NCBI GenBank assembly: GCA_964553245.1
Contig: CAZKJM010000001.1
Coordinates: 296,977 to 360,976, forward strand
Direction: 5' to 3'
Length of the DNA: 64,000 bases
Origin: an uncultured Gammaproteobacteria bacterium
GTDB taxonomy: Bacteria > Patescibacteriota > Microgenomatia > Levybacterales > UBA12049
Program-made: the position numbers and the translations under genes
Notes under the pieces: model-generated
Database searches by the model: none
Told to the model about the DNA's origin: nothing
What the model saw: the letters and a program-made list of their open reading frames with translations, nothing else
Part shown: positions 9,957-52,522 of the stretch, piece after piece
Layout of the letters: the number at the start of each line of letters is the position of its first letter
Position numbering within the stretch: the stretch's first letter is position 1

Positions 9957-9997
9957 AGAGTTTTAAATTTTAGCAAAATGCCTCTTAATAAGCAAAA

Positions 9998-10020
9998 ACC
10001 GCGATTAACGCGGTTGTTTT
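9998..10020 (-). terminator. Intrinsic terminator hairpin AACCGCG-attaa-CGCGGTT flanked by A/T runs
   Basis: A perfect 7-bp stem with T-runs on both sides. It lies between the LPATG protein gene and the sortase gene. Confidence 0.45.
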
Positions 10021-10024
10021 AAAT

Positions 10025-11191
10025 TTATGCAGCTATTGGAGGAGACGATCCCGATGCCATTCGCAGAAAAACACCAATCGCAAATAATAATGTAGCAAGA
10101 ATTGTTGCTAAGAAAGCTAAATAGTTTCCGGTTGCCGGAAGCATTGCGCCAAGAACCGCTTGGCTTAAAGAACTACCTCCGTCGCTTCTACCATCACTTC
10201 TTCCGTCTGAAAGCCCGTCTCCTCCGCTACTTCCGCCGTTTCCGCCATTACCGGAAGGTGGATTAACCGGTGGGTTTACCGGTGGTGGAGGTGGTGGAGG
10301 TGGAGGAGGAGGAACTGAATCATCTTCGCAACTGTAGCTAGATCCATTTATTCCTTCGTTGTTTATATTTATAATACTGTCTATGTTTCCGGTTTTTATA
10401 AACACGTTACCATTATTGCTATTAGCAGAATTGTTTCCTGTATTTGGATCGCTAGCTACATTGTTTACAATTCTGGCGCTGTTTATACTTGAATAAATTA
10501 ACTCACTTAGGCAAGAAGCATAAATATTATTGATTGATCCTTCCCCATTTCCCGAAATTTTATATAAAAATTTTCCCGGATCAGTTATATTTTTTCCCGT
10601 ATTTTTATTAAAATTAATATCTTTATTTACAATATTAATTTCTTCTTTAATATTACCCGTATAAATATTAACATTACCGTTATTATTACTTGCTGAATTA
10701 TTACCGGTATTACTATGCGATTGAACATTATTAATAATTTCTGCTGTATTCGTTTGAGAGGTACTTACTACTGTTTGGCTGTTTATATTAATATTATTAG
10801 TGGAATTTACTCCGTTTCCTGTTATTACAGCTTCTCCGCTTCCGCAAGGATTTTGGCAACCACATCCACCGCATTCATTTTCCGATACGTTTATATTTAT
10901 ATTTTCATTCTGGATTTCTGACGTTGTTACAATATCACCTGTTGAAATATTTGTTTCCCCGGAGTTTGAATTCGCGCTGTTATCTCCGGTATTTGCTTCT
11001 TCGTTAACTTGATTATTAACTTCTGCGTTATTAGTTTGATTTATGGAATTATTACTTTCTACTGTTACATTAACTGTATTTTGAGAAGAATCACCATTCC
11101 CATCAATTACTATTACAGTTTCTGCCAAAACAGTTTTTGGCGAAACCATAATAAATAAAATCGATAATAATAAAATAAGTTTCTTCTTCAT
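10025..11191 (-). CDS. Cell-wall-anchored Asn/Gly/Thr-rich repeat protein, paralog B, with an LPATG sortase signal
   Basis: 388 aa with a signal peptide and a repeat module related to paralogs A, C and D. It has a Cys knot (ECGGCGCQNPCGSG), a poly-Pro tract (P12 VNPPVNPP) and a Gly/Ser-rich stalk. The C-terminus is LPATG followed by a hydrophobic segment and RMASG. Confidence 0.7.
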   Translation of the reverse strand: MKKKLILLLSILFIMVSPKTVLAETVIVIDGNGDSSQNTVNVTVESNNSINQTNNAEVNNQVNEEANTGDNSANSNSGETNISTGDIVTTSEIQNENININVSENECGGCGCQNPCGSGEAVITGNGVNSTNNININSQTVVSTSQTNTAEIINNVQSHSNTGNNSASNNNGNVNIYTGNIKEEINIVNKDINFNKNTGKNITDPGKFLYKISGNGEGSINNIYASCLSELIYSSINSARIVNNVASDPNTGNNSANSNNGNVFIKTGNIDSIININNEGINGSSYSCEDDSVPPPPPPPPPPPVNPPVNPPSGNGGNGGSSGGDGLSDGRSDGRSDGGSSLSQAVLGAMLPATGNYLAFLATILATLLFAIGVFLRMASGSSPPIAA

Positions 11192-11221
11192 ATTTTTAAA
11201 ACTTTTTAAGATTTAATATCT

Positions 11222-13414
11222 TTAAAGTTGGGGCAGTCTTTTAATTTTTTTACCCAGGAAAAGGAGCAGGGCTATTCCCGGAATTAATATAATTAACCAA
11301 GCTAAATTAATATTAACTGCTTTTACTTTTGCTTTTTCTCCTGTTAAATTTTTACCCAAAGTATCTTTTATATGATCCGATACACCCGCAACTAAAATAC
11401 TCGCAAAAGATCCGTTATTATTACTTGCTATAAAGACTTTTGATTCGGTTGGTTCGGCAACGTTTTCCGTTTGTTTGTTGTCACTATTTACCGAATCTGT
11501 ATCAATGCTTTCTAAAATTGTTTCCGAATTTGTTCCGCCTATTCCGGATGTATTATTTTGTTCTTGATTTACGCTTTCCGCTTGTGACTGATCAGCCAAA
11601 ACTGTTTTTTCTTTAGTTTGACCGGGAGCAACAAAATCTCCAAACCAGCTACCAAAAACATTAATCATTGTTACAACCAGTTTTCCGTTACCCACTATAT
11701 TGTTGTTTACAAAATTAACAATATTTGCGATTATTTTTGCATCTCCTGTAGTAATGTTTGAATTTCCTCCTGTATTAAAACTAGATGTATTATTTCCGGT
11801 ATTAGCCGACAAATTAAGCGTGTTATTTATATTTGCGTTGTTAGTTTGATTTATAGAATTATTTGTTGTTTGATTAGAATTTACCGTATTTGTAGAATCT
11901 GCTCCGTTTGTATTGTTCATTGCAGTTACTTCTCCGGTTATTGGATCAACTACAAATTCTGTTCCCGAAGATCCTGCAAGAGTTGAGCCGTCTGGCGAAC
12001 CAATTATTTTTCCAACCCATTTTCCTGCTTGATTTACTATTACCAACCACCAATTACCGCCGATTAAATTTGAGTTGGCAATATTCAAAACATTGGCCAT
12101 TACGCTTGCATCACCGGTATTAATCGAAGAGTCTCCTCCTGTATTAAAGTTTGTATCGTTATTTCCTGTTTGTGCATCTAAAACTAAAGTATTGGTTATA
12201 GATGCATCATTTGATTGAAATGTATTATCTGTATTTGTACTCGTAGCGCTTGCTGTGTTTGTAGAATTAGCACCATTCCCAGTATTGGAGGCTGTTGTTG
12301 AGCCGCCGCAACTTCCACCGCAAATTGCATTCATTGCTTCTTCGGTTAAAATAATATCTCCTACTAAATTACCGAAAATATTAACTACTCCGTAAATTAC
12401 GTTTCCCGCAAGATTATTATTGGCAAAAGTTAGTGAATTAGCCGAAACATTTGCATCTCCTGTAACTATATCTGAATCACCGCCGGTGTTAAAGCTTGCA
12501 TTATTACTTCCTGAATCCGCAGCAAGAATTAATTCATTTGATACTCCTGCATTGTTTGTTTGATTGGTATTATTATTAGTTGTATTACTGGCATCTGCTT
12601 GGTTATTAGACGATGCTCCGTTGTTTTCGTTAGAAGCAGTTACCGAAGAACCGGAACATCCATTAACACAGTTTTGACCAAAATCCAAAACAATATCACC
12701 AATATGATCATCTGCGATATTAAATTCTGCAACAGCCACTCCATCTACATTTGTATTCACAGATGTAATTACTGTCCCGGTTGTATTTGCATCTCCGGTT
12801 GTAATAGATGAATCACCAACATTATATGAAGCGCTGTTTTGTCCCGTAGCTGTTGCTTGATTTAAATTATTATTTACAGTTGCACTGTTTCCCTGATTTG
12901 TATTATTGTTATTTATTACCGAACCGGAAACATCATTTAAGGACCCTGCTCCGTTTCCGCTATTGGAAACCGAAATACTTCCACCTTCTTCTCCATTAGT
13001 TATTCCCAAATTTGAATTCCCAGTTGTTTGTAAGGTAGTATCGCTATTTGCATCTCCAGTGTTAATTGCTGTGTCTCCAACGCCACCATTGGAAGATGTC
13101 CCTTCTTGTTCTGTAGTATCCGCTGTTATTTCTGAAGGTACAGTTGGCGTTTCTGGTGCACTAGGCGCGGTTGGTGCAGATGGAGCCTCGGGAGCTTTAG
13201 GTGCTTCCGGAGCACTTGGTGCACTAGGCGCGGTTGGTGCAGATGGAGCCTCGGGAGCTTTAGGTGCTTCCGGAGCACTTGGTGCACTAGGCGCGGTTGG
13301 TGCAGATGGAGCCTCGGGAATATCCAATGCATATACCGGCATAATGCGGGTAAAAAGTATTGCCGTTAATAATAGTATTGTTAAATATTTTTTAATTATA
13401 TTTATCTTTTTCAT
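11222..13414 (-). CDS. Large secreted Asn/Gly/Thr-rich repeat protein, paralog C, with an N-terminal Pro/Ala-rich tandem repeat and a C-terminal TM anchor
   Basis: 730 aa. After the signal peptide come three PEAPSAPTAPSAPSAPEAPKA units. Repeat modules follow, separated by Cys motifs (QNCVNGCSGSS, NAICGGSCGGS). It ends with a hydrophobic helix plus KKIKR. Confidence 0.6.
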   Translation of the reverse strand: MKKINIIKKYLTILLLTAILFTRIMPVYALDIPEAPSAPTAPSAPSAPEAPKAPEAPSAPTAPSAPSAPEAPKAPEAPSAPTAPSAPETPTVPSEITADTTEQEGTSSNGGVGDTAINTGDANSDTTLQTTGNSNLGITNGEEGGSISVSNSGNGAGSLNDVSGSVINNNNTNQGNSATVNNNLNQATATGQNSASYNVGDSSITTGDANTTGTVITSVNTNVDGVAVAEFNIADDHIGDIVLDFGQNCVNGCSGSSVTASNENNGASSNNQADASNTTNNNTNQTNNAGVSNELILAADSGSNNASFNTGGDSDIVTGDANVSANSLTFANNNLAGNVIYGVVNIFGNLVGDIILTEEAMNAICGGSCGGSTTASNTGNGANSTNTASATSTNTDNTFQSNDASITNTLVLDAQTGNNDTNFNTGGDSSINTGDASVMANVLNIANSNLIGGNWWLVIVNQAGKWVGKIIGSPDGSTLAGSSGTEFVVDPITGEVTAMNNTNGADSTNTVNSNQTTNNSINQTNNANINNTLNLSANTGNNTSSFNTGGNSNITTGDAKIIANIVNFVNNNIVGNGKLVVTMINVFGSWFGDFVAPGQTKEKTVLADQSQAESVNQEQNNTSGIGGTNSETILESIDTDSVNSDNKQTENVAEPTESKVFIASNNNGSFASILVAGVSDHIKDTLGKNLTGEKAKVKAVNINLAWLIILIPGIALLLFLGKKIKRLPQL
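13141..13325. repeat. 63-bp tandem repeat (about 3 copies) encoding (PEAPSAPTAPSAPSAPEAPKA)n inside paralog C
   Basis: GGTGCACTAGGCGCGGTTGGTGCAGATGGAGCCTCGGGAGCTTTAGGTGCTTCCGGAGCACTT starts at 13155, 13218 and 13281. The first two copies are near-identical and the third is diverged. Confidence 0.7.
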
Positions 13415-13526
13415 TTTTATAGTTTATTTTCTGTTTCCTGTTTTCTAATTTCTATTTTATTTTTCTCTCGGGTACAGAGTGCTCTTGTTGAAGTGCTTTA
13501 CAAAAAGCACTCTGTAACCCTAAAGA

Positions 13527-14804
13527 TTAGGCTCCCATGTGTAAAAATGCCCAAAGTGCTGCAAAATTGACTGAAAAATTAACATCATAGTCAAAATCTG
13601 GCAATAAATCAGACAAATCTACCATTGGTAATTGCCCTATTACGTTCACGTTTCCGGAATTACTTACGTTTGTATCGATAAGTGCATCTCCGGTATTAAT
13701 TGCTGGATCCGATGGATCATCAACTTCTCCGGTACTAGAATATACATCGTTGTGACCGGTTTTTGCATCTAGATCCTTAAGCATATTTGTAAGGAAGGAC
13801 ATGTTTCCCTGTCCGAGAGTTTGTGAATTATTAAGAGTTAAATTAATAATATTATCCATATCCTTACCATCTTGGCAACCTTCTGCTCCGTTTCCAACAA
13901 TTTTTGCTAAAACAGACATTGCACATCCATTGCAATCAACATCTGCATAGTTAAAGTTGACTGAATTGTCAACATCTGCGTAAACTTTTGCATTACCAGT
14001 GCCGATCATTACATCGCCTCCGGTGTTAAATCCTGCATCGTTTCCGCCTGTTTTTGCATCTGCATCAACAGTATTTAAAACCATTGCAAAATTATCTTGA
14101 TCAAGTTTTGTGCCTTTAGTAAGTCCTGCAACGATAGAATTATCGCTTCCTGCTCCATTACCAGAAATGATAAAAGAAGCTGATGGATTTACTGGTCCAA
14201 CAACTGATCCAACTTTTGCAGAGTTAACATTTGCAGTTGTAGAAACATTGGTGTCCACTGTTGCATTACCAGTGCCGATCATTACATCGCCTCCGGTGTT
14301 TTTATATGCATCGTTTCCGCCTGTTTTTGCATCTGCATCAACCATGTTGGTAACCATTGCTTTATTGTCTTGAGTAACGGTTGTTGTTGTTTTTTCACCA
14401 AGTTGTACACCATTTTGACTACCTGCTCCGTTTTCGGAGATTTTTACGTCGGTTGAACCTGCTGAGCAACAATCAACTTCTGCTGCATTTCTGTTAAGAT
14501 CATTTGTTATGTCTGCTTTAACTGTTGCATCTCCTGTATGGATTCCAACATTACCTCCGGTGTTAAATCCTGCATCGTTTCCGCCTGTTTTTGCATCTGC
14601 ATCAACCATGTTGGTAACTATTGCATTATTATTTTGAGTAACGGTTGTTTTATTGGTTTGATTAACTGTTGTCCAGTTATCAGACCCTGCACCGTTTCCG
14701 GAAATAACTATTGTTGTTTCTGCGAACGCAACTGGGGCTAAAGCATTAATTAAAATTGCTGAAGTAGCAATTCCTGTTACTATTCTTCTTTTTAAATCTA
14801 TCAT
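13527..14804 (-). CDS. Secreted Asn/Gly/Thr-rich repeat protein, paralog D
   Basis: The real start is probably the ATG at 14804 (MIDLKRRIVTGIATSAILINALAPVAFA is a signal peptide, with a GGAGGTG RBS 6 nt upstream) rather than 14924. It has three ISGNGAGSDN...AKTGGNDAGFNTGG...TGDA modules separated by the Cys motifs CCSAGS and CNGC. Intragenic repeats of about 100 bp are near-identical. Confidence 0.6.
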   Translation of the reverse strand: MIDLKRRIVTGIATSAILINALAPVAFAETTIVISGNGAGSDNWTTVNQTNKTTVTQNNNAIVTNMVDADAKTGGNDAGFNTGGNVGIHTGDATVKADITNDLNRNAAEVDCCSAGSTDVKISENGAGSQNGVQLGEKTTTTVTQDNKAMVTNMVDADAKTGGNDAYKNTGGDVMIGTGNATVDTNVSTTANVNSAKVGSVVGPVNPSASFIISGNGAGSDNSIVAGLTKGTKLDQDNFAMVLNTVDADAKTGGNDAGFNTGGDVMIGTGNAKVYADVDNSVNFNYADVDCNGCAMSVLAKIVGNGAEGCQDGKDMDNIINLTLNNSQTLGQGNMSFLTNMLKDLDAKTGHNDVYSSTGEVDDPSDPAINTGDALIDTNVSNSGNVNVIGQLPMVDLSDLLPDFDYDVNFSVNFAALWAFLHMGA

Positions 14805-14889
14805 CTTATTCACCTCCTCTCTTTCGTAAATTTCTTTCAAATCTTGAAAGATTGCACTTCTTTCTTCCGCGCCTTGTTTCTGTCTGCCT

Positions 14890-14955
14890 AAGCTTAAAGA
14901 AACAAAAAACGGAGGCTCCTTCATCCAACCTAAGTTAGATGAAAAAGCCTCCGTT
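14890..14955 (-). terminator. Long-stem intrinsic terminator downstream of the DUF2292 gene
   Basis: AAACGGAGGCTCCTTCATC...GATGAAAAAGCCTCCGTTT is an imperfect stem of about 17 bp. On the minus strand it is followed by GTTTTTTGTTTCTTT. Confidence 0.5.
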
Positions 14956-16024: not shown

Positions 16025-16047
16025 AAAAAATGCCCCATTTCGGGGCA
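16025..16047 (-). terminator. Intrinsic terminator TGCCCC-atttc-GGGGCA plus T6 on the minus strand
   Basis: A 6-bp GC stem. A6 on the plus strand at 16025-16030 gives a T-run after the hairpin on the minus strand. It lies downstream of the 16102..16605 gene and abuts the next start codon. Confidence 0.45.
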
Positions 16048-16101: not shown

Positions 16102-16605
16102 TTATAACCCTCTTGCACTCACGGAAATATTTACGGTATTTTCGTTATGTTGCTTTGCAACTTCAACTAAAATCTCTTTTTCCCCGCTTGATCCTGCCAG
16201 TTTATTTAAAACTTTTCCGTTTGCATTTGTTTTAATAAAAGAGCTGGCGACCATGCCTAGTTCTTTAATTTTTTGTTTATACCAGTCGGTAATTTTATCC
16301 GCGTCATCGTTGCTTTGAAGAATTAAATTATTACCGGATTTGGCAATTACTATTGCGTTTGGATATATAAACGAATTAATATTACTTGCGTTATTTATCG
16401 TTGATGTAGTAGTTTGCTCTTGAATATTTTCAGGTAAGGGCGTCGGGGTATTTGTTGGAGAAACCGTTGGTGTAATTTTTTGCTTTTCCACGAGATTGGA
16501 TGAATTATTCTGTTTAATGGAATTTGATTTTTTAATATTCTTATCAAATAAAATTGTCAGGAAAAGAAGGATTATTAAGAAAGCTAAAATCTTTAAGGAT
16601 TTCAT
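16102..16605 (-). CDS. Hypothetical secreted or membrane-anchored protein with a Pro/Thr linker
   Basis: 167 aa with an N-terminal hydrophobic helix and a TPTVSPTNTPTPLPE linker. No recognisable domain was found. Confidence 0.35.
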   Translation of the reverse strand: MKSLKILAFLIILLFLTILFDKNIKKSNSIKQNNSSNLVEKQKITPTVSPTNTPTPLPENIQEQTTTSTINNASNINSFIYPNAIVIAKSGNNLILQSNDDADKITDWYKQKIKELGMVASSFIKTNANGKVLNKLAGSSGEKEILVEVAKQHNENTVNISVSARGL

Positions 16606-16658: not shown

Positions 16659-19064
16659 CTAAGTAGTTTTATAAGTTAAATTATTTTCTTTGTCGACGGA
16701 TACAAGAATTTTATTTCCTCTTTTTACTTCTTCTTTTAAAATAGTTTTAGAAATTAAATCTTCTATGTTGTCTTGAACAAATCTTCTAAGCGGTCTTGCG
16801 CCAAAATCTTTATCAAATCCTTCCTTTGCAATTTTTTCCACAACTTGATCTTCGAAAATTATTGTTATTCCCTGTTCATCAAGTTTTTTATGAACATCTT
16901 TTAAAATAAGTTTTACTATCTCTATTACTTCTCTTTCTCCAAGCGGCTTAAAGACAATAACTTCGTCAAACCTATTTAAAAGCTCCGGCTTTAATATTCC
17001 TTTAGTTTGTAAAAATTCATATAGCTCTTCCTTAAATTTTTTATCTACTGTTTGTCCCTGATTAATTTTTTCGCGAATAAATTCTGATGCCGCATTGGAA
17101 GTTGCAATAATAATCGCGTTGGAAAAAGAAACTGTTTTACCTTTATTATCTGTTAATCTTCCGTCGTCTAAAACCTGCAAGAATAAATCCATTATTTTAG
17201 GATTTACTTTTTCGAATTCGTCTAATAAAACCAAAGAAAACGGATTATCATAAATTTTTTCTGTTAATTCTCCCTTTTCGTCTTCTTCTCCCGGTGTCGA
17301 ACCAAGCAATCTTTTTATCCCTTCGTTATCTTGATATTCGCTCATATCAAGTCTTATCATTTTATCTTCGCTTTTAAAATAAACGGCAGCAAGAGCTTTT
17401 GCAGTTTCTGTTTTCCCAACTCCGGTTGGACCCAAAAAAAGAAAAGAAATCGGCTTTTCTTTACTAGCAAGACCGCTTCTTATTCTTCTTATTGCTTCTG
17501 AAATTGCCGATACCGCTTCCTCTTGATCGATTACTCTTTTATGAATTTCGTTTTCCATATTTAAAAGCAATTCCTTTTCTGCTTCTTTTGGCTGACCTAC
17601 TGCAATTGCTGTTTTTCGCTCAACTTGATTTATTACGTCCTCTTCTTCTAAAACTTTTTTGCCGGAAATTAACACTCCGCCAATTGAGTCTTCTAAAAGA
17701 TTAATCGCTGCTCCGGGCAAAACTTTGTCTTTTGAATATTTGGAGGAATAAGTTAACGAAGTGATTATTGCTCGATAACTTAACGCGATTTTTTTGTATT
17801 TCTCTATTTCAACTGCTTTTTCAAATAACATTTCTAAAGCCATTTGTTGCAACGGCTCTTCAAGTCTTACGATTTCAAACGAATTTAAAAAAGTAACTTT
17901 TGGCTCAACAAATTTTTTATATGATCCAAGCGTTACCGTAGTGATAATTCTTATTACTCCTTTTTCTATATATGGTGCTAAAACTCCTGATAAATCAAGT
18001 TTAAAGGTAGAGCTCCCCAGGATATTCTCAAAATTTGGAATATATAGAATAACATCTTTTGCGTGAGCGATTTCCGTAATAATTGCGTTTAATCTTTTTT
18101 CCAATTCTCCCTGGTCATTTGCGCCAGCCAAAAGAGAATCAACCATTAACTGTAAAAACCTTTGATGATAAAGATTACCCTTTAAGTTGCCAATAAAACT
18201 TTCAAAAGCCAGTGATTCAACCAAAGACTTTTTCCCGCTTCCCGGTTCGCCTACCAAAATTAAGCTTTTGTTTCTAAGTAACCCTTCTATGCTTTCTTTA
18301 TATTCCTTTACCCTTCCTAAAAACATTGGATTTTTACCTATAACTTCCGATGTTATGTCAATTGTGTATTTTTTTGTTTCAAGCGTCCATCCAGATACCC
18401 AATCTTCTGCAATTCCTTTACCCCAAAAATTAATTCTAAGCGGTTTTATTTCTTCAAATTGCGAATAATAAACGTGTGACCAATATAAAATGTGCAGAAT
18501 CTCTTCTTTTTTTATTTTTTTATTAAATAGAAATCTTGTCCTTTCTTCTGTTAATAAAAGATAAGCAACAAAAATATCCGAAGTTGTTATGTATTTAACG
18601 TTTATGTCTTTTGCTATTTCAAAGGCTTCTTTTAATATTTCTTCTCTTGAAATATCGAATTTCTTAATCTCACTTGGTAAAGCATTTATTTTTTCTAAAA
18701 TAAAATTGACCGACTTTGTTTTTAATAATCCTTTTAAAATTCGGTTTATGTCTTTGTGGGACCAAATACCTAAGCAACGAATTGTTAATGATTCTAAAAT
18801 ATTTTTTCCGTCGTTTTTGTTAACAGTAATCGTTGGCATCATTTTTCCGATTTTAAAGAAAAGAAATGCTTCCAAAATTAAATAAAGCGAAATCAAAAAT
18901 AAAGGAAAATTTGGAAAAACTTTGCTTGCAAAAGAATCATAACTCATAAAAAGAACTACTAAAAGAAATAAAATCCTGATTATTTTTATTGGAATTGAAT
19001 TATAAAAATGAAAAATTTTTGAAAAATAATACATATTAAATAAACAAAACCCAGACTGTTGCAA
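16659..19064 (-). CDS. Membrane-anchored Clp/Hsp100-like AAA+ ATPase with a degenerate first nucleotide-binding domain
   Basis: 801 aa. The N-terminus has 2-3 hydrophobic helices; an alternative start is the ATG at 19034. NBD1 has Walker A GEPGSGKKS (GKK instead of GKT) and Walker B IPNF instead of IDE. NBD2 is canonical (GPTGVGKT, LLDEFEK, NRFDEVIVFKPL). Confidence 0.75.
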   Translation of the reverse strand: MQQSGFCLFNMYYFSKIFHFYNSIPIKIIRILFLLVVLFMSYDSFASKVFPNFPLFLISLYLILEAFLFFKIGKMMPTITVNKNDGKNILESLTIRCLGIWSHKDINRILKGLLKTKSVNFILEKINALPSEIKKFDISREEILKEAFEIAKDINVKYITTSDIFVAYLLLTEERTRFLFNKKIKKEEILHILYWSHVYYSQFEEIKPLRINFWGKGIAEDWVSGWTLETKKYTIDITSEVIGKNPMFLGRVKEYKESIEGLLRNKSLILVGEPGSGKKSLVESLAFESFIGNLKGNLYHQRFLQLMVDSLLAGANDQGELEKRLNAIITEIAHAKDVILYIPNFENILGSSTFKLDLSGVLAPYIEKGVIRIITTVTLGSYKKFVEPKVTFLNSFEIVRLEEPLQQMALEMLFEKAVEIEKYKKIALSYRAIITSLTYSSKYSKDKVLPGAAINLLEDSIGGVLISGKKVLEEEDVINQVERKTAIAVGQPKEAEKELLLNMENEIHKRVIDQEEAVSAISEAIRRIRSGLASKEKPISFLFLGPTGVGKTETAKALAAVYFKSEDKMIRLDMSEYQDNEGIKRLLGSTPGEEDEKGELTEKIYDNPFSLVLLDEFEKVNPKIMDLFLQVLDDGRLTDNKGKTVSFSNAIIIATSNAASEFIREKINQGQTVDKKFKEELYEFLQTKGILKPELLNRFDEVIVFKPLGEREVIEIVKLILKDVHKKLDEQGITIIFEDQVVEKIAKEGFDKDFGARPLRRFVQDNIEDLISKTILKEEVKRGNKILVSVDKENNLTYKTT

Positions 19065-19368
19065 ACGGCCATAAAATAAAACTTAAAATCAAAATAAATT
19101 CAATTAAAATGAGTAAGAATAGCAATAATAGATCTGCTAAGATTACGAAGGTTTTTATAAACATACCCATTCCGATTGAAAAACCAACCAAACCTTCACG
19201 ATATTCATTTTTCCACGGCTTAAAATAGGTTTGTAAAACCAGAGGTAAAGAAAAAAGTTTTAAAAAAGCGTCGTTTAAAGATAAAAAAAATAAGATCATT
19301 TCTTTCGGTGCTTCTACAAACCAAAACTTTAAGAATACAAAAGGAAGTTTTAAATAAAAACTAACCAT
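19036..19368 (-). CDS. Small hydrophobic membrane protein
   Basis: 110 aa with multiple TM segments. Its stop overlaps the Clp-like start region (TAATATG). Confidence 0.35.
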   Translation of the reverse strand: MVSFYLKLPFVFLKFWFVEAPKEMILFFLSLNDAFLKLFSLPLVLQTYFKPWKNEYREGLVGFSIGMGMFIKTFVILADLLLLFLLILIEFILILSFILWPFATVWVLFI

Positions 19369-19470
19369 AAATAAAAACTAACCATAAATAAAACGGCAAA
19401 TTTTGTCTCGCCGGCAGGCGGATAATTCTAGTGTAGAGAGATTTACAAAAAATTGCAATCTTAAATAGAA

Positions 19471-21759
19471 TTATTTTTTAGTACAAATAAGCGGACACAA
19501 TTGTATGGATTCCTTATTAGAAGAACAACTTGGGTCAATTTTACAGTTATAAAAAACTAATGTTGTTGTAGTTGTAGATTTTGTTCCACTACCGCTTCCG
19601 CTAGGTGGTAAAGTCGTAGAAGTCGAAGAATCAATTGTAGTAGTTGTACTTGCCGGAACAGGATTACTGTCCGGTATAATTACTGGGGGTGTACCGGTTG
19701 AACTATTTAACATTGTTACCTTTATTAAATATTCCATTTCCAGATTATTAACTAAATCTACGCTTTCCTGTAATATGCTTGATTCTCCGTTTCCATAAGG
19801 AATATTTATTACAAGCGTGTAATTTCCTATCGGTAAGTTATTAAAAGAAAAATTTCCATCTGCTTGCGTGACATAAGACGGAGAAGATAATCCATAAAGA
19901 GCTAACGTCGCTCCTGCAAAGTTTTTGTCTTGAGAGTCTTTTTGCCCATTATTATTTACATCCTCATAAACATTTCCAAATACTTTTCGCGGTATATCAG
20001 TCCCACCCGAAATCGGACCGGTAGTACTAGTAGTTGCAATTGTTGATGTTGTAGTAATAGTTGAACCAGTTGATGGCGGTCCTCCAGCGCATTCAGGAAT
20101 CATTGATTGTTGACCCAAGCATTTTGCACCGCTTTGTTCTCCATCGGGTTGCTGGTCCATCTCTGTTGCCTGAAGAGCTTTTTTTACCTCCGCGCAATTA
20201 TTAGATTCAATACCATAAAGATCTGTGCAAGATTGGATTACTGCTGTATATAAAGATTTAAAGTTAGCGCTTTGGGAAAGATAAGTTGTTAATGCCCTAT
20301 AAACTATTCCTCCGGCAACCTGTCTTCCTACGCCATTAATCAAACATCCATTAAAACTTCCTCCATCGGCCATTAAATAATAAGCTTTGTTTAATACGCC
20401 ATTATTGTAATGCACTCCACCATTATCACTAGTCCCACAATAGTAATTAGCTGAAAAAAGACGATCGGGTTGACTTTTTAGAGTTGGGTCAGACATATCA
20501 CGAATAACCCTACCTGTATCTTCACCCATTGTCCAATTACCATCAATATTACTGGCAAAAACATCCGACATGCTTTCATTAAGCGCACCTGATTGATATT
20601 TATAAACTAAGTTTGCAGTGTACTGGGTTACCGCATGCGTTAATTCATGAGCCGTTACATCTAGGACTGCCATACTTGGACAAAAGTACATTTGATTTGA
20701 AGTTCCGCTCCAGCTGGCATTTGGACATTTTCCATTCATTGGATGATTAACGTTGGCAATAATTTTTGATCCCTGATTATTAAAGCTATCTCTTCCAAAA
20801 GAATTATAATAATAATTATAAATTAAGCCTAAAATATTATACGCGTTGTCAACATCTGGAATTGCTGATTCTGCCTGACCTTCACTTCTTGTCATCTGAC
20901 AAGAAGTAGTATTATTACAATTATTAATCTGCCTATCCAATAGCTCTATTACCTTATCTTCTTCGTAAACAACTTTACCCGTTTCAAAATCTATGAAATA
21001 TTGTTTTGAGAAAAAAGGAGGATCTCCGGCGCTAATCACAAAAGAATAAGTTAAATAGTTTACATTATCATTACTTATTCCCAATAATTTTTTGTTGATA
21101 ATATATTTTCCAAATGGGGTAACATTCAGCTTATTGGGCATTCCACTGTCTTCTCCAGCTTCATTTACGGCAACCTCTTGAACTTCTTTTTGAGTTAAGA
21201 TTTCTTTTGTTGTTTGATTATTGTAAATAAGATTACCTATTATTGCATATATTTCATTTTTATTTTTTAAATGTACCATTAATGAACCGCCATATACAGG
21301 AACATCGTTTATTTTTTGATCAAAGACATAGTGTTCGTTGTTAAGGATTACATTATTTTTTGTTAAATAAACTTCTTTATTATCTTTTTGCTCTTTAACA
21401 ACGCTCGTATTTTTATCAAAATTTTTGGGGAGAAGTTCTATCCCGTCTCTGTATTTAGGATTATTTTTAATAAAGTTTTTAATGCCATCTAAGCCTTCCT
21501 TATCCGTTTTGTATAGATATCCCTTTTCTGAATTTATCGAAATATAACTTACTCCGTTTTCTATTTTTACACTGGAATATTTGGATAATTCATCTTCTAA
21601 AACTACCGGACTTATCTTTTTATTTAAAACAAATAAATCAATAAAGAAAAACAGTATTAATAAAAAAAATAATCCACCGACTATCAGTGTTTTTATTCTA
21701 TGCTCTTTGAGGGACAATTTTATTTTTTGAAATAGTGTCCAACCCTGATTTTCTTCCAT
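19471..21759 (-). CDS. Membrane-anchored M4 (thermolysin-like) zinc metalloprotease with C-terminal Cna-B/prealbumin-like and Thr-rich domains
   Basis: 762 aa with an N-terminal TM helix. HELTHAVTQY plus GALNESMSDVFA gives the HExxH...E signature of M4 proteases. The C-terminal segment GNVYEDVNNNGQKD is Cna-B-like. Confidence 0.8.
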   Translation of the reverse strand: MEENQGWTLFQKIKLSLKEHRIKTLIVGGLFFLLILFFFIDLFVLNKKISPVVLEDELSKYSSVKIENGVSYISINSEKGYLYKTDKEGLDGIKNFIKNNPKYRDGIELLPKNFDKNTSVVKEQKDNKEVYLTKNNVILNNEHYVFDQKINDVPVYGGSLMVHLKNKNEIYAIIGNLIYNNQTTKEILTQKEVQEVAVNEAGEDSGMPNKLNVTPFGKYIINKKLLGISNDNVNYLTYSFVISAGDPPFFSKQYFIDFETGKVVYEEDKVIELLDRQINNCNNTTSCQMTRSEGQAESAIPDVDNAYNILGLIYNYYYNSFGRDSFNNQGSKIIANVNHPMNGKCPNASWSGTSNQMYFCPSMAVLDVTAHELTHAVTQYTANLVYKYQSGALNESMSDVFASNIDGNWTMGEDTGRVIRDMSDPTLKSQPDRLFSANYYCGTSDNGGVHYNNGVLNKAYYLMADGGSFNGCLINGVGRQVAGGIVYRALTTYLSQSANFKSLYTAVIQSCTDLYGIESNNCAEVKKALQATEMDQQPDGEQSGAKCLGQQSMIPECAGGPPSTGSTITTTSTIATTSTTGPISGGTDIPRKVFGNVYEDVNNNGQKDSQDKNFAGATLALYGLSSPSYVTQADGNFSFNNLPIGNYTLVINIPYGNGESSILQESVDLVNNLEMEYLIKVTMLNSSTGTPPVIIPDSNPVPASTTTTIDSSTSTTLPPSGSGSGTKSTTTTTLVFYNCKIDPSCSSNKESIQLCPLICTKK

Positions 21760-22320: not shown

Positions 22321-25002
22321 TTAAGCCGAGCTTACCACTGACGCTTGAGTTCCATCAACAGAGGAATTAGAACCTGACGATGCGGAGGGATTATTTTGTG
22401 GCTGATTATTTATTTGATTAATCATTCCGTTTTGCTGTAATTGACCTGCTTCTTGCTGAGCTTGAAGATTTTGCGAAGCTCCGTTTAAATCATTTTGCTG
22501 GTTTGGTTGGCTTTGATTATTTATCGCTTTTGTAAAATTAAATTCTTCTTTTTGCTTATCGTAACCAATTTTTATTTTATCTCCCGTTACAAATGTTTTA
22601 TTAATAATTAAAATTGCAATCGGGTTTTCAATGGAGCTTTGAATAAGTCTTCTTAATGGTCTTGCTCCGTAAATTGGATCATAACCTTCTTTTGCTAAAA
22701 CCTGAAGGGCAGCATCGGCAATCTCTAGATCAAATCCTTGCGCTTTAAGAAGCTTTCCTGTCGCATTAATGCCAAGCTTTGCTACCTCAGTCATATTTTC
22801 TTGAGTTAACGGCTCAAAAACTACCACACCGTCAAATCTATTAAGAAGTTCCGGCTTAAAGAATTTCCTGAGTTCATCCACTAAGAGTTTTGTTAGATCC
22901 TTAAATTTTGCGCTTATTTTTTCCGATGGCGATTCAGTTTTCTCTTCAGGCTTTACGGTGTTTGTCTTTTTTTCTTCTTTTTTGTCTTCCGTGTAACCCA
23001 AGAGCTCCTGTTGAATTAAAGCGCTTCCAATATTTGAAGTTGCAATAATAATTGTATTTTTAAAAGAAATCGTGTTGCCTTTATTGTCTGTTAATCTTCC
23101 GTCTTCTAATAATTGAAGTAAGATATTAAATACATCCGGGTGGGCTTTTTCGATTTCGTCGAGTAAAACTATTGAGTATGGCTTTGTTCTTACAGCTTCT
23201 GTTAGCTGACCACCCTCTTCATATCCAACATATCCAGGAGGAGCTCCAATAAGTTTTGCAACTTCGTGTTTTTCCATATATTCACTCATATCTAGTCTTA
23301 CCATTGCGTCTTCTTTGCCAAACAATAATTCTGCAAGAGTTTTTGCTAATTCTGTTTTACCAACTCCGGTTGGACCTAAAAAGATAAATGATGCAATTGG
23401 TCGATTAGCATTAGAAAGCCCGATTCTTCCTCTTCTCACAGCTTCTGCAACTGTTGCAACCGCATTTTTCTGATTTATTAATCTCTTATGAATTATTTCT
23501 TCCAAGTGTAAAAGTTTTTCGCTTTCATTTTCGGTTAACTTGGTAATTGGTATTCCTGTCCAACTACTGACAACTTTTTCTATATCGGGTTTCTTGATTT
23601 GATTATCCTGTCTTTTTCCCTCATTCATCTGAAGCCTTACTTCCGCTGCTGCCTCATCCAAAAGGTCAACTGCCTTATCCGGAAGATATCTTTCGCCTAT
23701 ATATCTTTTAGAAAGCTTTACCGAAGCTTCAATTGCCTCCGGGGTCATTACGACCTTATGGAAAGTTTCGTACTTTGGCTTTAAAACGTTTAACATTTCT
23801 ATTGCCACTTCCTCTGTTGGTTCTTCGACTAAAACAGGCTGGAATCTTCTTTCAAACGCTTTGTCTTTTTCAAAATGTTTTCTGTACTCCGTAGTTGTAG
23901 TTGTTCCAATCATCTGGAGTTGTCCTCTTGCTAAAAAGGGCTTTATAATATTTGACGCATCCATTGCGCCTTCTGTGTCTCCTGCGCCAATTAATGTATG
24001 TACTTCATCTATAAATAAAATTACTGCGCCGCCTGATGCTTGGGTTTCTTTAATTATACTTCTTAATCTTTCTTCAAATTCTCCTCTATGAGAAGCACCT
24101 GCGACAAGAGAAGACAAATCTAGCTGAATTATTTTTTTATTAGCAAGGTCTTTTGGTGCTTTTCCGGAAACTATGTCTGATGCCAATCCTTCTACTATTG
24201 CTGTTTTACCAACTCCTGCTTCTCCGATGATAATCGGATTATTCTTTGTTCTTCTTAAAAGAATATGGACAAGTCTTTCAACCTCCCTGTCTCTCCCTGT
24301 TATCGGGTCTAGTTTACCGCTCTTTGCTTGTTCTGTTAAGTCTAAACCAAACTGCTCAAGTGCTGATTTTTTTCCATACACAAAACTTGACGATTTAGCT
24401 AATTTTTGTTCAATTTTATCCTTATTTAAACCTTCTTGTTGAAGAGTATTGCTAATTTGACTATTTTGGGAAAAAATCGAAATTAAAACATCTTCGGGGC
24501 TTATAAATTCAACTCCTCTTTCTTTTACCTGAGAGTAAGCCTTTTCAAAAATTTGTTTTGAGTTATCGCTTAATGTCGGCTGACCTGTAAAATTACCCAT
24601 TATCTCTTTTGTTTGAATTTCCTTAGAAAGCCTACCAACATCTGTAGAAAAATCAGCCAATAATTTACAAACTTCGCTGTCATAAAGAAGACCAAAGAGT
24701 ATTTGTTCCGGTTCAATTAAGGGCTGCTGTATTCTTTTTGCTTCATTTTGAGCCTGAGATAAAACCTGAGACATTCTTGTATCTAAATGCGACATTACAG
24801 ACATATCTTGTCTAACTTCGGGGTTTATCTGAGAACCAACAATATTGTTTGCTTGATTTTGCTGCGGCATTTGCTGAAAAGGTTGTTGTATAGAATTAAC
24901 CTGTTGAGGAAATGAAGAATTTTGCTGAACAGGAATTTGTCCTGCATTATTTACTTGTTGCTCTTCTTGATGTTTTTTTGATGAAAATAAATTACCTAAC
25001 AT
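22321..25002 (-). CDS. clpC: ClpC/ClpA-type two-ring AAA+ unfoldase (Hsp100) with Q/N-rich N- and C-terminal low-complexity tails and no extended M-domain
   Basis: 893 aa. It has Clp_N repeats, a canonical NBD1 (GEAGVGKT, ILFIDEVHTL) and a canonical NBD2 (GPTGVGKT, LLDEIEK). The inter-NBD linker is only about 40 aa. Residues 1-70 and the last 90 residues are Gln/Asn-rich. Confidence 0.85.
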   Translation of the reverse strand: MLGNLFSSKKHQEEQQVNNAGQIPVQQNSSFPQQVNSIQQPFQQMPQQNQANNIVGSQINPEVRQDMSVMSHLDTRMSQVLSQAQNEAKRIQQPLIEPEQILFGLLYDSEVCKLLADFSTDVGRLSKEIQTKEIMGNFTGQPTLSDNSKQIFEKAYSQVKERGVEFISPEDVLISIFSQNSQISNTLQQEGLNKDKIEQKLAKSSSFVYGKKSALEQFGLDLTEQAKSGKLDPITGRDREVERLVHILLRRTKNNPIIIGEAGVGKTAIVEGLASDIVSGKAPKDLANKKIIQLDLSSLVAGASHRGEFEERLRSIIKETQASGGAVILFIDEVHTLIGAGDTEGAMDASNIIKPFLARGQLQMIGTTTTTEYRKHFEKDKAFERRFQPVLVEEPTEEVAIEMLNVLKPKYETFHKVVMTPEAIEASVKLSKRYIGERYLPDKAVDLLDEAAAEVRLQMNEGKRQDNQIKKPDIEKVVSSWTGIPITKLTENESEKLLHLEEIIHKRLINQKNAVATVAEAVRRGRIGLSNANRPIASFIFLGPTGVGKTELAKTLAELLFGKEDAMVRLDMSEYMEKHEVAKLIGAPPGYVGYEEGGQLTEAVRTKPYSIVLLDEIEKAHPDVFNILLQLLEDGRLTDNKGNTISFKNTIIIATSNIGSALIQQELLGYTEDKKEEKKTNTVKPEEKTESPSEKISAKFKDLTKLLVDELRKFFKPELLNRFDGVVVFEPLTQENMTEVAKLGINATGKLLKAQGFDLEIADAALQVLAKEGYDPIYGARPLRRLIQSSIENPIAILIINKTFVTGDKIKIGYDKQKEEFNFTKAINNQSQPNQQNDLNGASQNLQAQQEAGQLQQNGMINQINNQPQNNPSASSGSNSSVDGTQASVVSSA

Positions 25003-25007
25003 AATTA

Positions 25008-27338
25008 TTAATTTTCTGCTGGCTTATCCAACTCTTCTTTATTTATATGAGCTTCTGCTTTAGCGCTCATCTCTTTTAATTGTACGTGCTTTTTTTCTTT
25101 GGTGTCAATCAACGTTTCTTCTTCCTCTTCTTTTTTTGTAATTTCCGATAGAACTGTTTTTGCTGCCTCAAGCTTTGCTTTAAGATAAGAAATTACTTCT
25201 GTTTGGGAAAAACCTCCAATAAGAAGGAAGGGAAGAATTGTTCCAACAGATTCCATCCCCTTGTTGATATTTTGAGGATCACTTGATAAAAGCTCTGTAA
25301 TTGTCTGGTCTATTTTAGACACATCTTCTTTTATCCATTCTTTTCTGTTTCTCTCTTTTCCTTCCAATGCTTTCGGAACTTCAAGATTTTGGTAATTTTC
25401 TATCCAGATTTTTCTAACAGATTCATAATCGTCAATATTTACGGATTGAACCCTATTGGCAACAGGGAAATTGCCCGAAGGAGAAGTGGTTAAATCAAGT
25501 ATTCCTGCTTGTTGAAGAATTACGCTGGCAATTTCGTTTCCCTTTTCCTTTGCTTCTTTTATTTTTTGCTTAAGGTCTTCCGAAATTTCTCCATTTCCTT
25601 TTTCAGAAGCATCAAGGATAGAGCTAGCTAAAGAATCTCCGCCTTTTGAAGCTTCCGTAAGCTTTGCCTTAATTTCTTTTAATCTTTGTTTATCGTAAGA
25701 AGAGGTAGCGTTTTCGGGATTTGCCAAGTTTTGTAATACACCGATAAGTTTTATATTTTCAGCCGCCACTCCCAACGCCTGAGCCGGAGCCGCACCAGCT
25801 GCAATATTTGAGGCTGTAAGAATCGAACCAGCAAGCTGATTACCTTTTTGGCTTTCTGAAGAAAGCTTAGCACCAACAGAAGAATATTTTTCTCGTTCAA
25901 TAGTGGACACTGCGCTCTTTGGATTTGCAATTTTTTGAAGAGACTGATGCATTCGCATTACATCCTGGCTTCTTGCGCTTTCTTTAGAGAGAAGAGCTGT
26001 TTCGTATTTTGCAATATCCCTCATTGTAGGAATATTTAAGTTTGCAAGATTGGCTATTTCCATGTTTGCCTGTTTTATATGCATTCTTGCCGCTTGAGAC
26101 ATAAAAGTAGCGGAATCTGCTCTAACTTCAGGTATCTCTATCTTTGCTCCATAAGGAAGATTCTTTGCCAAACCGCCTGCGTAAGGCATTGTCGGAGAAA
26201 CCGGAGCAGGAGGATTTGAACCAGGAGCAACTTTGGCCATAAGATTTGACCCATTTGACATCAATTGCTTAAACCAATTATCCTCACCCTCAGATAATGA
26301 ATATATATAATCAAGAAATATCTGTAAAAGTAAAAACGGCAAAATAATTACAACCCAAAGCATTAAAAGAGCTACGATGTATAAAGCAAAAGTATCTTTA
26401 TTGTTAATGCTATTTGTTAACGATAAAATCTGCTGAGGACCTCCAAGTAAAATATTAATTGCTGTTGGATAAATAACATCGCTGTTTTTAGCAAAATTTA
26501 ACGGAATGTTTGTATCAGATCTCCATATCTGGACAAGTCCTGCTAGAAAAATTGCAAAAAGCGGTCCATATAAAAGCCAGCGGAAAAATTCACCAACCCA
26601 GATTTTTGCTGTATTTCGAATCGGAGAATAAAACAGTAATAATGGGAATATCGGGGAAATAATTATAAAAAACCAAAGAATAATTTTCCTAAGAAGAAGT
26701 ATGCCCGACATTACGTAATAGGTGAGAGCTGTAAGCTTTACTAAAAGAAGAGAAATAAAGACGGATTCATCGTATTCCGGACCATAAATTCTAAAACCCT
26801 GGAAATCCTTGTATCCAAAACCAATATTTAAGAGGTTTTTCTGGGATATTATCTGGGTGGGATTAGAACCGGGAACGGTTAAGAAGAAGCCTTGAATAAT
26901 ATCCATTATTTGATAAATAAATTGAACTAGAGCAAAGGAAAAGGTAATTAATATTACAATAAAAATAAATCTTGGAATAAAGCGCATTATTGTAATATTT
27001 TTGCCGCGCGTTATTATAAGCAAGAATGCTGTTCCCAAAACAAATAGAATTAAAAATGCATAAGTGATATTTCGGATATTCGCCCAAAATCCTGCAATTG
27101 GATTTGACTGCCCTTTTGCTACATAAGACCAGTTATATCTTTGTAATGTCCAGTCTAAAAACTCTCCTGATCTTGCTCCTGATTTTCCCGAAAATGTAAC
27201 ATCTGCGTCTTTTATCCATTGAGCTTCTGATTGCGTTGACGATTGTGAGCCTCCTGTTTGAGCATAAGTTTCTGAATTAAAAAATAGGAAGACTATAAGA
27301 GAAATTATTGTTAAAAATAGGGCAGTTATTTTTTTCAT
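25008..27338 (-). CDS. VirB6/TrbL-like polytopic membrane protein with a large C-terminal coiled-coil/hydrophilic domain
   Basis: 776 aa with a signal peptide, about 6 TM helices (residues 90-340) and a C-terminal extension of about 430 aa that is Ala/Lys/Glu-rich. This architecture matches ConG/TcpH/VirB6-type proteins. Confidence 0.4.
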   Translation of the reverse strand: MKKITALFLTIISLIVFLFFNSETYAQTGGSQSSTQSEAQWIKDADVTFSGKSGARSGEFLDWTLQRYNWSYVAKGQSNPIAGFWANIRNITYAFLILFVLGTAFLLIITRGKNITIMRFIPRFIFIVILITFSFALVQFIYQIMDIIQGFFLTVPGSNPTQIISQKNLLNIGFGYKDFQGFRIYGPEYDESVFISLLLVKLTALTYYVMSGILLLRKIILWFFIIISPIFPLLLFYSPIRNTAKIWVGEFFRWLLYGPLFAIFLAGLVQIWRSDTNIPLNFAKNSDVIYPTAINILLGGPQQILSLTNSINNKDTFALYIVALLMLWVVIILPFLLLQIFLDYIYSLSEGEDNWFKQLMSNGSNLMAKVAPGSNPPAPVSPTMPYAGGLAKNLPYGAKIEIPEVRADSATFMSQAARMHIKQANMEIANLANLNIPTMRDIAKYETALLSKESARSQDVMRMHQSLQKIANPKSAVSTIEREKYSSVGAKLSSESQKGNQLAGSILTASNIAAGAAPAQALGVAAENIKLIGVLQNLANPENATSSYDKQRLKEIKAKLTEASKGGDSLASSILDASEKGNGEISEDLKQKIKEAKEKGNEIASVILQQAGILDLTTSPSGNFPVANRVQSVNIDDYESVRKIWIENYQNLEVPKALEGKERNRKEWIKEDVSKIDQTITELLSSDPQNINKGMESVGTILPFLLIGGFSQTEVISYLKAKLEAAKTVLSEITKKEEEEETLIDTKEKKHVQLKEMSAKAEAHINKEELDKPAEN

Positions 27339-27340
27339 CT

Positions 27341-27634
27341 TTAACTAAATCCGGGAATTCGTAAAACATCGACCGCAATTACCTGAATAAAAACATAACC
27401 GAAAATTGCCAGTAAAAGCCCTGCTATGGCATAGTAAATATAGCTTTTTCCGTTATTTAATTTATCTGGATTACCCCTTGAGGTAACAATAATATAACCG
27501 CCGTAAATTATAAATATCAAAGAAACCCCACCGATTAAACCAAGTCCTATTGCATAAAATTTTGAGACAAAACCGGGTACTGTATTTGGAATACAACCAA
27601 GTTCTGTCCAAGTTTCATTTGCTTGACAGTTCAT
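27341..27634 (-). CDS. Small two-TM protein (T4SS pilin/TrbC-VirB2-like or ConC-like), co-transcribed with the VirB6-like gene
   Basis: 97 aa with two hydrophobic helices separated by a short polar loop (TSRGNPDKLNNGKS). A 3-bp gap separates it from the downstream gene. Confidence 0.3.
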   Translation of the reverse strand: MNCQANETWTELGCIPNTVPGFVSKFYAIGLGLIGGVSLIFIIYGGYIIVTSRGNPDKLNNGKSYIYYAIAGLLLAIFGYVFIQVIAVDVLRIPGFS

Positions 27635-46544: not shown

Positions 46545-46546
46545 AT

Positions 46547-52521: not shown

Positions 52522-52522
52522 T

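Follow-up and report, generated by a model that had tools for sequence, protein, structure and literature searches.

What would a Clp/Hsp100-type ATPase be doing if it were anchored in the membrane and one of its two rings had lost the residues for ATP hydrolysis? This question is raised by a gene in a 64,000-nt stretch of DNA (the window; positions 296,977 to 360,976 of the forward strand of contig CAZKJM010000001.1, assembly GCA_964553245.1) from a bacterium titled uncultured Gammaproteobacteria bacterium and placed by GTDB in the Patescibacteriota (Microgenomatia; Levybacterales; UBA12049). A previous sequence-only reading of the window had described the gene product as a membrane-anchored Clp/Hsp100 paralog with a catalytically dead first AAA+ ring, and had suggested a membrane-associated unfolding, extraction or secretion-assist module. 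Based on the analyses presented here, it is highly probable that the protein is a membrane-anchored, ClpP-independent Clp/Hsp100 derivative in which the first nucleotide-binding domain (NBD1) is dead and aromatic pore loops are absent, and that it pairs with a 110-aa membrane protein (p110) encoded directly upstream.

The open reading frame (ORF) of this ATPase spans positions 16659..19064 on the minus strand, on which all features described below lie unless the plus strand is indicated. The first in-frame ATG, at 19034, is the likely start codon and defines a coding sequence of 16659..19034 (791 aa plus stop); it falls one base past the TAA of the upstream 110-aa ORF. Pfam domains AAA_2 (E = 4.9e-47), ClpB_D2-small (1.5e-22) and AAA_lid_9 (1.2e-5) were detected, together with generic P-loop matches in the first module, and the solved structures nearest by sequence are ClpB (1qvr, E = 1e-111), followed by ClpC, ClpE, ClpC1, Hsp104 and ClpA. 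An AlphaFold2 model, with 68 family members as input, has a mean predicted local distance difference test (pLDDT) score of 83.8, and Foldseek comparison with the protomers of ClpC, ClpB and ClpC1 hexamers yielded TM-scores, normalised to the target chain, of roughly 0.82-0.85. The protein shares with class I Clp/Hsp100 members the two AAA+ modules, AAA_lid_9, ClpB_D2-small and an N-terminal helical domain.

Motifs in both rings were assigned by HMMER alignment of the ATPase to ClpB (1qvr/6oax). NBD1 (residues 229-460; 17655..18350) is a pseudo-ATPase module, and the two Walker substitutions that the sequence-only reading had proposed for it were borne out, with the Walker residues correctly assigned. 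The Walker A motif GEPGSGKKS (18225..18251) pairs with GEPGVGKTA of ClpB, placing Lys at the position of the Mg-coordinating Thr (Thr/Ser in canonical motifs), and in the Walker B region (ILYIPNFENI, 18021..18050) VILYIPNFENIL pairs with VILFIDELHTVV of ClpB, the Asp-Glu pair being replaced by Pro-Asn. Both Arg fingers are also gone (FLNSFEIV at 17868..17891 for ALERRFQPV in ClpB, i.e., ERRFQ to LNSFE), and the pore-loop position reads AGANDQGELE (18099..18128) for AGAKYRGEFE in ClpB, such that KYR has become NDQ and no aromatic residue is left. No M-domain is present in the ATPase: ClpB residues ~400-530 have no counterpart in the alignment, and in the AlphaFold2 model the small domain of NBD1 is limited to 65 residues.

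These NBD1 substitutions are kept across an alignment of 116 full-length Levybacteria orthologues, which we used as the close family. The Walker B Asp position is occupied by Asp in none of the 116 and by Pro in 102, the Walker A Thr/Ser position holds Thr or Ser in just 42, the Arg fingers are absent throughout, and an aromatic residue at the pore-loop position was found in 0/116. No substitution occurs at G262, G265 or G267, and the P-loop Lys position contains Lys in 88 members and Arg in the other 28. Since the P-loop glycines and the Lys/Arg are conserved, NBD1 may retain nucleotide binding, and loss of hydrolysis is the safer statement; the proposed loss of ATP binding or hydrolysis in this ring is accordingly kept for hydrolysis, and binding may persist.

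NBD2 (large and small domains, residues 500-791; 16662..17537; Pfam AAA_2 and ClpB_D2-small) contains a complete ATPase site, whose motifs are all identical to those of ClpC, ClpB and ClpA. Walker A (GPTGVGKTE, 17406..17432), Walker B (LVLLDEFEK, 17208..17234), sensor-1 (TSN, 17085..17108), the Arg finger (LLNRFDEV, 16959..16982) and sensor-2 (GARPLRRF, 16779..16802) are canonical, and these catalytic motifs are near-invariant among the 116 members, in which NBD2 is the domain with the highest conservation (mean column entropy 0.90 bit). Although NBD2 had been considered fully canonical, this is true of the ATPase site but not of the substrate-contacting loops. At the pore-loop position (17259..17303), the target has GSTPGEEDEKGELTE where ClpB has GAPPGYVGYEEGGQLTE; GYVG is lost together with a 2-residue deletion, and ClpB GAPPGYVGYEEGG has turned into GSTPGE--EDEKGE, a shorter acidic loop without any aromatic residue. 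In the D2' loop, EKH has changed to DNE. The pore-loop segment is the least constrained part of NBD2 (1.7-3.2 bit, gaps up to 31%), and 0/116 close members have an aromatic residue there. In ClpB, the substrate is clamped by Y251 with K250/R252, by Y653/V654 and by E639-H641 (PMC6546751).

A search for a ClpP-docking loop, which had been suggested as a check, was likewise negative: the tripeptide [ILVM]-G-[FL] between the NBD2 sensor-1 and Arg finger is found neither in the target ATPase nor in any of 115 close homologues, and it is also missing from 84/84 representatives bearing transmembrane (TM) segments from a wider search (see below). The segment between sensor-1 and the Arg finger has the length seen in ClpB (mode of 37 residues in close homologues, 34-37 in most representatives). 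No ClpP gene was found within the 64-kb window.

The N-terminus of the ATPase consists of a short helix (residues 2-11) and two TM helices, on which Kyte-Doolittle hydropathy and the AlphaFold2 model concur; the claim of membrane anchoring by two or three helices therefore stands, with a count of two. TM helix 1 covers residues 14-37 (18924..18995) and TM helix 2 covers residues 42-62 (18849..18911), the latter including the near-invariant E55, F57 and K61. Because the hairpin is bordered by Lys/Arg residues at both of its cytoplasmic ends, an N-in/C-in topology with a cytoplasmic ATPase body fits the sequence. The hairpin is present in 96 of the 116 homologues, in which M1, Y11, R20, E55, F57, K61 and P67 are near-invariant, and the majority of tblastn matches at 54 species loci begin at ATPase residue 1. 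The N-terminal hydrophobic segment is thus coding. The public gene call P0001 (762 aa), which starts at Met30 and removes TM helix 1, is probably too short; several homologues of 736-765 aa look likewise shortened by gene callers.

Between the hairpin and NBD1 lies an all-alpha N-domain (residues 79-189; 18468..18800) that resembles the Clp N-domain, with AlphaFold2 helices at pLDDT 88-95. It has no Pfam Clp_N match at E < 0.01; the alignment to the ClpA model TIGR02639, which begins at profile position 54, does extend into it. The N-domain is followed by a Gly/Trp-rich linker (residues 203-228; 18351..18428; F-W-G-x-G-I-x-E-x-W-V-x-G-W-T-x-E-T-K-K-Y-x-x-D-x-T) just before NBD1, whose conservation in the 116-member alignment is the highest outside NBD2: F203, G205, G207, E210, W212, G215, W216, T217 and E219 are invariant or nearly so. 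Residues 206-215 of this linker have pLDDT values below 50 in the model, and its core, GxG..W..G[WYF]T, is retained in distant long forms of the family.

Among the neighbours that had been listed as small membrane proteins, one emerged as a real partner. p110 (19036..19368), a polytopic membrane protein of 110 aa, has a homologue upstream of the ATPase gene in all 51 loci with upstream sequence, out of 54 GTDB species loci, and is the sole invariant neighbour. Where gene coordinates were read, the two genes abut (1-3 nt) or overlap by 4 nt; in five related neighbourhoods examined by gene calls, a 108-110-aa ORF lies directly upstream, in one case uncalled and visible by tblastn alone. A total of 357 homologues of p110 were found (60-77% identity), and it is more conserved than the N-terminal half of the ATPase, with no match in Pfam or NCBIfam. 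Moreover, five close relatives (P0108, P0109, P0113, P0119 and P0120) contain natural p110-ATPase fusions, each matching the p110 hidden Markov model with E ~1e-48. In dozens of distant long forms, the first ~100 residues match the p110 profile co-linearly, and hhalign of p110 against the long-form N-termini gave a probability of 94.5% (E = 8e-8 over 103 columns). In view of the fusions and the profile homology, p110 represents the membrane domain that ancestrally formed the N-terminus of the family and that has become a gene of its own in Levybacteria, and it is the putative obligate partner of the ATPase. A 17-bp tandem duplication (ATGGTTAGTTTTTATTT x2; 19352..19385) spans the p110 start codon; the ATG of the upstream ATGGTTAGTTTTTATTT copy is out of frame and meets a stop after 11 codons.

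To what extent are these features shared by other bacteria? A search with the N-terminal 470 residues of the ATPase yielded 297 proteins, the best 120 of which all belong to Patescibacteria where named, mainly Levybacteria; the full-length ORF is intact in more than 100 homologues (45-78% identity). In a search of 50%-identity representatives, 87 matches were below 1e-30, and about 100 of the best 150 have N-terminal hydrophobic segments. In the TM-bearing representatives, neither KYR nor GYVG is present, and the NBD1 Arg-finger pair and the ClpP tripeptide are missing as well. Soluble GYVG-bearing sequences in the same list mostly have an NBD1 loop of the [KRQMN][YF]R type, and almost all of them have the RR pair; the ClpP tripeptide was seen in 3 of 12 soluble representatives checked. 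A second search, seeded by a long form, collected 110 TM-bearing proteins; they come from Patescibacteria, among them WWE3 and Daviesbacteria. Most of these have GK[TS] in the NBD1 Walker A, and their Walker B contains D-E in 70 and E-E in 38. None of the 110 has an aromatic residue in pore loop 1, only seven have any in pore loop 2, and the latter loop lacks GYVG and is frequently six residues shorter. Overall, pore-loop loss and the membrane anchor reach about 200 more distant relatives (WWE3, Daviesbacteria and Berkelbacteria).

In a neighbour-joining tree of NBD2, read as a single bipartition with sequences classed by GYVG, one branch has 92 pore-loop-less sequences on one side and, on the other, 14 sequences with GYVG together with a single aberrant soluble sequence. 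The pore-loop-less clade has a single origin. Splitting the midpoint-rooted tree by a hydrophobicity threshold was uninformative, with borderline sequences and three NBD1-NBD1 outliers. Because most distant long forms keep the NBD1 Walker motifs, the membrane anchor and pore-loop loss are the hallmarks of the family, and the inactivation predicted for the first ring is a later development, mainly Levybacterial. So far, the family has been seen only in the Candidate Phyla Radiation (CPR)/Patescibacteria. Among the species-representative loci (L007-L054), many Levybacteria-like metagenome-assembled genomes are titled "uncultured Gammaproteobacteria bacterium", apparently through mislabelling in bulk.

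The view that a membrane-tethered, half-dead Hsp100 is unusual was supported by comparison with curated families and the literature. No curated Clp model in NCBIfam accepts the ATPase, its scores being far under the cut-offs (e.g., 458 bits for the ClpB model TIGR03346, with a cut-off of 1232), and our full-text literature search turned up no account of a bacterial Hsp100 that is membrane-anchored or lacks pore loops, nor of relevant CPR Clp paralogues. The family therefore appears to be undescribed. Source databases give its members either no name or "ATP-dependent Clp protease ATP-binding subunit", a label that should be corrected for genes without a ClpP-docking loop.

Several known systems were compared with the family. 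ClpC, ClpB and ClpA have neither the TM hairpin nor the dedicated membrane module that are both found here. Class I members possess Walker A/B motifs and Arg fingers in both rings as well as KYR and GYVG pore loops, whereas the target ATPase has the former set only in NBD2 and carries NDQ and GE-- in place of the latter; the ClpP-docking loop of ClpA and ClpC and the M-domain of ClpB and ClpC (for DnaK and MecA, respectively) are also absent from it. The TPTLD-like linker of distant family members resembles the linker between the N-domain and NBD1 of ClpC. FtsH, Msp1 and Bcs1 share an AAA+ ring held under the membrane by N-terminal TM helices; however, they are single-ring proteins of the classic AAA clade, aromatic pore loops occur in FtsH and Msp1, and FtsH also carries an M41 protease domain. 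Identity with FtsH was rejected, as the ATPase has no Peptidase_M41 match and contains two Clp-type modules rather than one AAA module plus M41. ClpV/TssH was rejected as well (342 bits for TIGR03345, with a cut-off of 885; no type VI secretion genes in the window). Besides, a weak match to the structure of SMAX1 (9kkx, E = 2.3e-8) was observed. SMAX1/D53-type plant proteins are also double-NBD Hsp100 homologues repurposed for non-unfoldase roles, but they are eukaryotic, soluble, nuclear transcriptional co-repressors without a membrane domain.

With regard to a ring that keeps its P-loop without catalytic residues or pore-loop aromatics while the other ring serves as the motor, NSF-D2, p97-D1 and PEX1/6-D1 offer precedents. 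They differ from the present family in that substrate is threaded by their active ring, which retains an aromatic pore loop, while neither ring of the ATPase has such a loop. By analogy, the closest functional parallel would be Torsin with its membrane cofactors, rather than ClpB, ClpC or FtsH. Torsin is a Clp-related, membrane-associated AAA+ protein without aromatic pore loops, and its membrane cofactors bear a degenerate AAA+ fold (PMC5425593). Both systems would thus combine a membrane-associated relative of the Clp/Hsp100 NBD2, lacking aromatic pore loops, with a membrane-spanning partner (LAP1/LULL1 for Torsin) and a degenerate AAA+ module. Torsin, however, has one AAA+ module, no Arg finger of its own and a lumenal location, and is activated in trans by LAP1/LULL1, whereas the ATPase has its own NBD2 Arg finger, a degenerate module (NBD1) in cis and a cytoplasmic body; the parallel is an analogy only. 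Membership in the Torsin family itself was rejected on the two modules and the conserved NBD2 Arg finger LNRFD.

From these features, we propose a mechanism in which the two-TM hairpin would hold a ClpC/ClpB-like body (N-domain, NBD1 and NBD2) under the membrane. The pseudo-ATPase NBD1 would most likely act as a structural or assembly ring, as in NSF-D2, p97-D1 and PEX1/6-D1, and NBD2 would be the sole motor, since its Walker A/B, sensor-1, Arg finger and sensor-2 motifs are intact. Processive axial threading is probably not how the ATPase works, because KYR, GYVG and the D2' EKH are all lost and the NBD2 loop evolves freely with indels. Instead, ATP turnover in NBD2 would drive conformational changes through the Gly/Trp linker and the TM hairpin to p110, and the ATPase and p110 together would serve membrane or envelope proteins as a remodeller, gate or assembly factor powered by ATP. 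Judged from motifs and conservation, such a non-threading, p110-coupled mechanism is an evenly balanced proposition. A core role in membrane/envelope proteostasis or assembly is suggested by the heat-shock-operon position of the gene in Levybacteria and by its housekeeping positions elsewhere.

A number of points weigh against this proposal. Hexamer formation, ATPase activity and p110 binding are inferred for every family member, and the absence of aromatic loops is compatible with gripping by other residues or by a partner. The N-domain, which binds substrates or adaptors in other Clp proteins, is retained and moderately conserved. In addition, the Levybacteria context (hrcA-grpE-dnaK-dnaJ ... 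nusA, often with a canonical ClpC-like gene) also fits ordinary proteostasis. The AlphaFold2 model of a natural p110-ATPase fusion has pLDDT values of only 43-79 in its membrane part, and counts of hydrophobic segments in the fusions reveal no obviously consistent topology.

Four other explanations were considered. The ATPase could still be a threading unfoldase or extractase, a membrane-tethered hexamer that pulls proteins from or through the bilayer in the style of FtsH-AAA, Msp1 or PTEX-HSP101 and grips them by non-aromatic loops or p110 surfaces. We regard this as unlikely, though by no means negligible: a membrane anchor together with a complete NBD2 motor, the retained N-domain, the heat-shock operon context in Levybacteria and the exported or membrane nature of the neighbours in the window would all suit it, but every known ClpB substrate contact (KYR, Y653-V654 and the D2' EKH; PMC6546751) is replaced, hypervariability of the NBD2 loop, including indels of up to 6 residues, would not be expected of a working grip, and no partner-protease loop exists. 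Unfolding or extraction by the usual threading, as previously envisaged, is doubtful given that substrate-gripping loops are absent in both rings. It is improbable that the ATPase is instead a membrane tether or regulatory subunit, performing no mechanical work of its own, that would recruit the unfoldase encoded at 22321..25002 (the canonical ClpC-like ATPase) to the membrane by docking onto it or by entering a joint assembly with it. Every NBD2 catalytic residue is retained under strong constraint, the two ATPases are just ~35% identical, and no canonical Clp is adjacent in 37 of 51 informative loci or in WWE3 and Daviesbacteria; these observations outweigh the presence of a fully canonical, co-directional paralogue 3.3 kb upstream, an arrangement shared by 14/54 species loci within the 6-kb upstream flank. 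Degenerate paralogues in mixed AAA+ rings, such as Pex1/Pex6 and FtsHi/Ycf2, would provide a precedent for such a tether.

The co-directional neighbours listed by the sequence-only reading (a membrane-anchored M4 protease, small membrane proteins, a second ClpC-like ATPase and a VirB6-like protein) were found as described, and the idea that the ATPase energises a secretion or processing system made of the VirB6-like protein, a pilin-like protein and the protease draws on this shared orientation and on the recurrence of a pilin-like/VirB6-like/ClpC string in three of four distinct related neighbourhoods (gene calls). We consider it quite improbable. The M4 protease, VirB6-like, pilin-like and second Clp genes are all lineage-variable neighbours, which makes a secretion module a weak explanation: other loci have cohesin or SdrD_B proteins in the protease slot, dnaJ in L004 and several further loci stands almost directly before p110-ATPase without VirB6, pilin or Clp, and outside Levybacteria the context is ribosomal/prfA or mreC/PBP2. 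A terminator-like hairpin between the protease gene and p110 also stands against it, and strict phyletic co-occurrence is contradicted. Finally, we give hardly any credence to an annotation artefact (an internal start leaving the hydrophobic N-terminus untranslated) or to a decaying, pseudogene-like relic. The public gene call from Met30 and the degenerate NBD1 could be cited for it, but residues 1-29 are conserved at the protein level over dozens of species, a start at Met30 would leave TM helix 2 in place, and the full-length ORF persists in the homologues with NBD2 and the linker strongly constrained. An anti-phage defence ATPase was rejected too: matches to PADLOC DolB and PDC-M37B cover NBD2 only (residues 462-657 and 525-764) and represent generic NBD2 similarity, the neighbours have no PADLOC match, and the context is housekeeping.

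Turning back to the non-threading, p110-coupled reading, it is possible, although we hold it only tentatively, that CPR/Patescibacteria own a lineage-wide housekeeping membrane-integrated Hsp100 machine, in which a p110-like domain and a pore-loop-less double ring perform ATP-driven work in the membrane without threading. If so, this work would be gating, insertion, or the assembly and disassembly of envelope complexes; bacteria would then have their own version of the Torsin principle, the Clp family would have gained a new mode of action, and the Levybacteria form would have evolved further through gene fission and inactivation of the first ring. Soluble threading motors are the textbook picture of Clp/Hsp100 proteins, and a clade without the known gripping loops but with one ATPase ring under strong selection implies a different use of the fold. 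Several CPR lineages carry the family despite tiny genomes with few dispensable genes, and, given its housekeeping neighbourhoods, the family probably has a core function, in the envelope or in proteostasis, across a large part of the bacterial tree that is uncultivated. Moreover, the natural series from fused long forms with an active NBD1 to split forms with a dead NBD1 is suitable material for dissecting the roles of the two rings.

The gene order on the minus strand of the window is hrcA, grpE, dnaK, dnaJ, a type IV secretion system (T4SS)-pilin-like ORF, the VirB6/TrbL-like protein and the canonical ClpC-like ATPase, and then a 182-aa membrane protein, the TM-anchored M4 protease with an SdrD_B domain, p110, the target ATPase and a 167-aa signal-anchored protein, followed further on by a surface-protein block with a sortase and by nusA and infB. 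Across Levybacteria, the general pattern is only dnaJ ... p110-ATPase ... nusA: dnaJ was found within 6 kb upstream of the ATPase gene in 28 of the 54 species loci, and several loci have it immediately before p110. In WWE3, the ATPase gene lies after the S13-S11-S4-rpoA-L17-L13-S9 cluster and before a release-factor gene (prfA), and in Daviesbacteria it follows mreC/PBP2. A search for CIRCE, the HrcA operator, allowing 3 mismatches, found none in the window, and the sequence gives no support for heat-shock co-regulation. A strong sigma-70-like promoter match (11/12, with TG) lies upstream of hrcA at 31857..31886.

Downstream of the ATPase, the 167-aa signal-anchored protein (16102..16605) is kept by only few relatives; homologues with 43-44% identity occur downstream in L005 and L059. 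Terminator-like hairpins, detected by consensus scan only, are located between the M4 protease gene and p110 (19394..19413) and after the 167-aa ORF (16031..16047). Because they bracket these genes, they hint, if weakly, that p110, the ATPase and the 167-aa protein may be on one transcript.

The ClpC-like paralogue (22321..25002) is itself atypical, with a Gln-rich N-terminal extension and essentially no M-domain. Its NBD1 pore loop reads SHR, not KYR, and the string AGASHRGEFEER occurred 17 times in the related loci scanned; at the site of the ClpP-docking loop of ClpC, it has a Lys/Glu-rich insertion of ~20-25 aa containing "LGY". Between dnaJ and clpC (25008..27634) are the 97-aa T4SS-pilin-like ORF (Pfam PF18895; NCBIfam Mbov_0395-type pilin, under cut-off) and the VirB6/TrbL-like polytopic protein of 776 aa. 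This pair recurs in several Levybacteria, and VirB4/VirD4 genes are not nearby. The M4 protease (thermolysin family; 19471..21759) is anchored by an N-terminal TM segment and carries an FTP propeptide motif as well as the SdrD_B domain; in relatives, its slot contains cohesin- or SdrD_B-only proteins and is hence a variable slot for exported proteins. A sortase and three large surface proteins lie between the target ATPase and nusA (9405..14924). Two of the surface proteins (388 and 730 aa) combine a signal peptide with a TM segment at the C-terminus, and the longer of them contains Pro/Ala-rich repeats. This block looks like an insertion, since nusA is 0.1-1.5 kb from the ATPase gene in most relatives. 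Other genes in the window encode an RTX-repeat protein (7234..8667, plus strand), PilN/PilO-like pilus assembly proteins (51970..53146, plus strand) and groES-groEL (44889..46849, minus strand).

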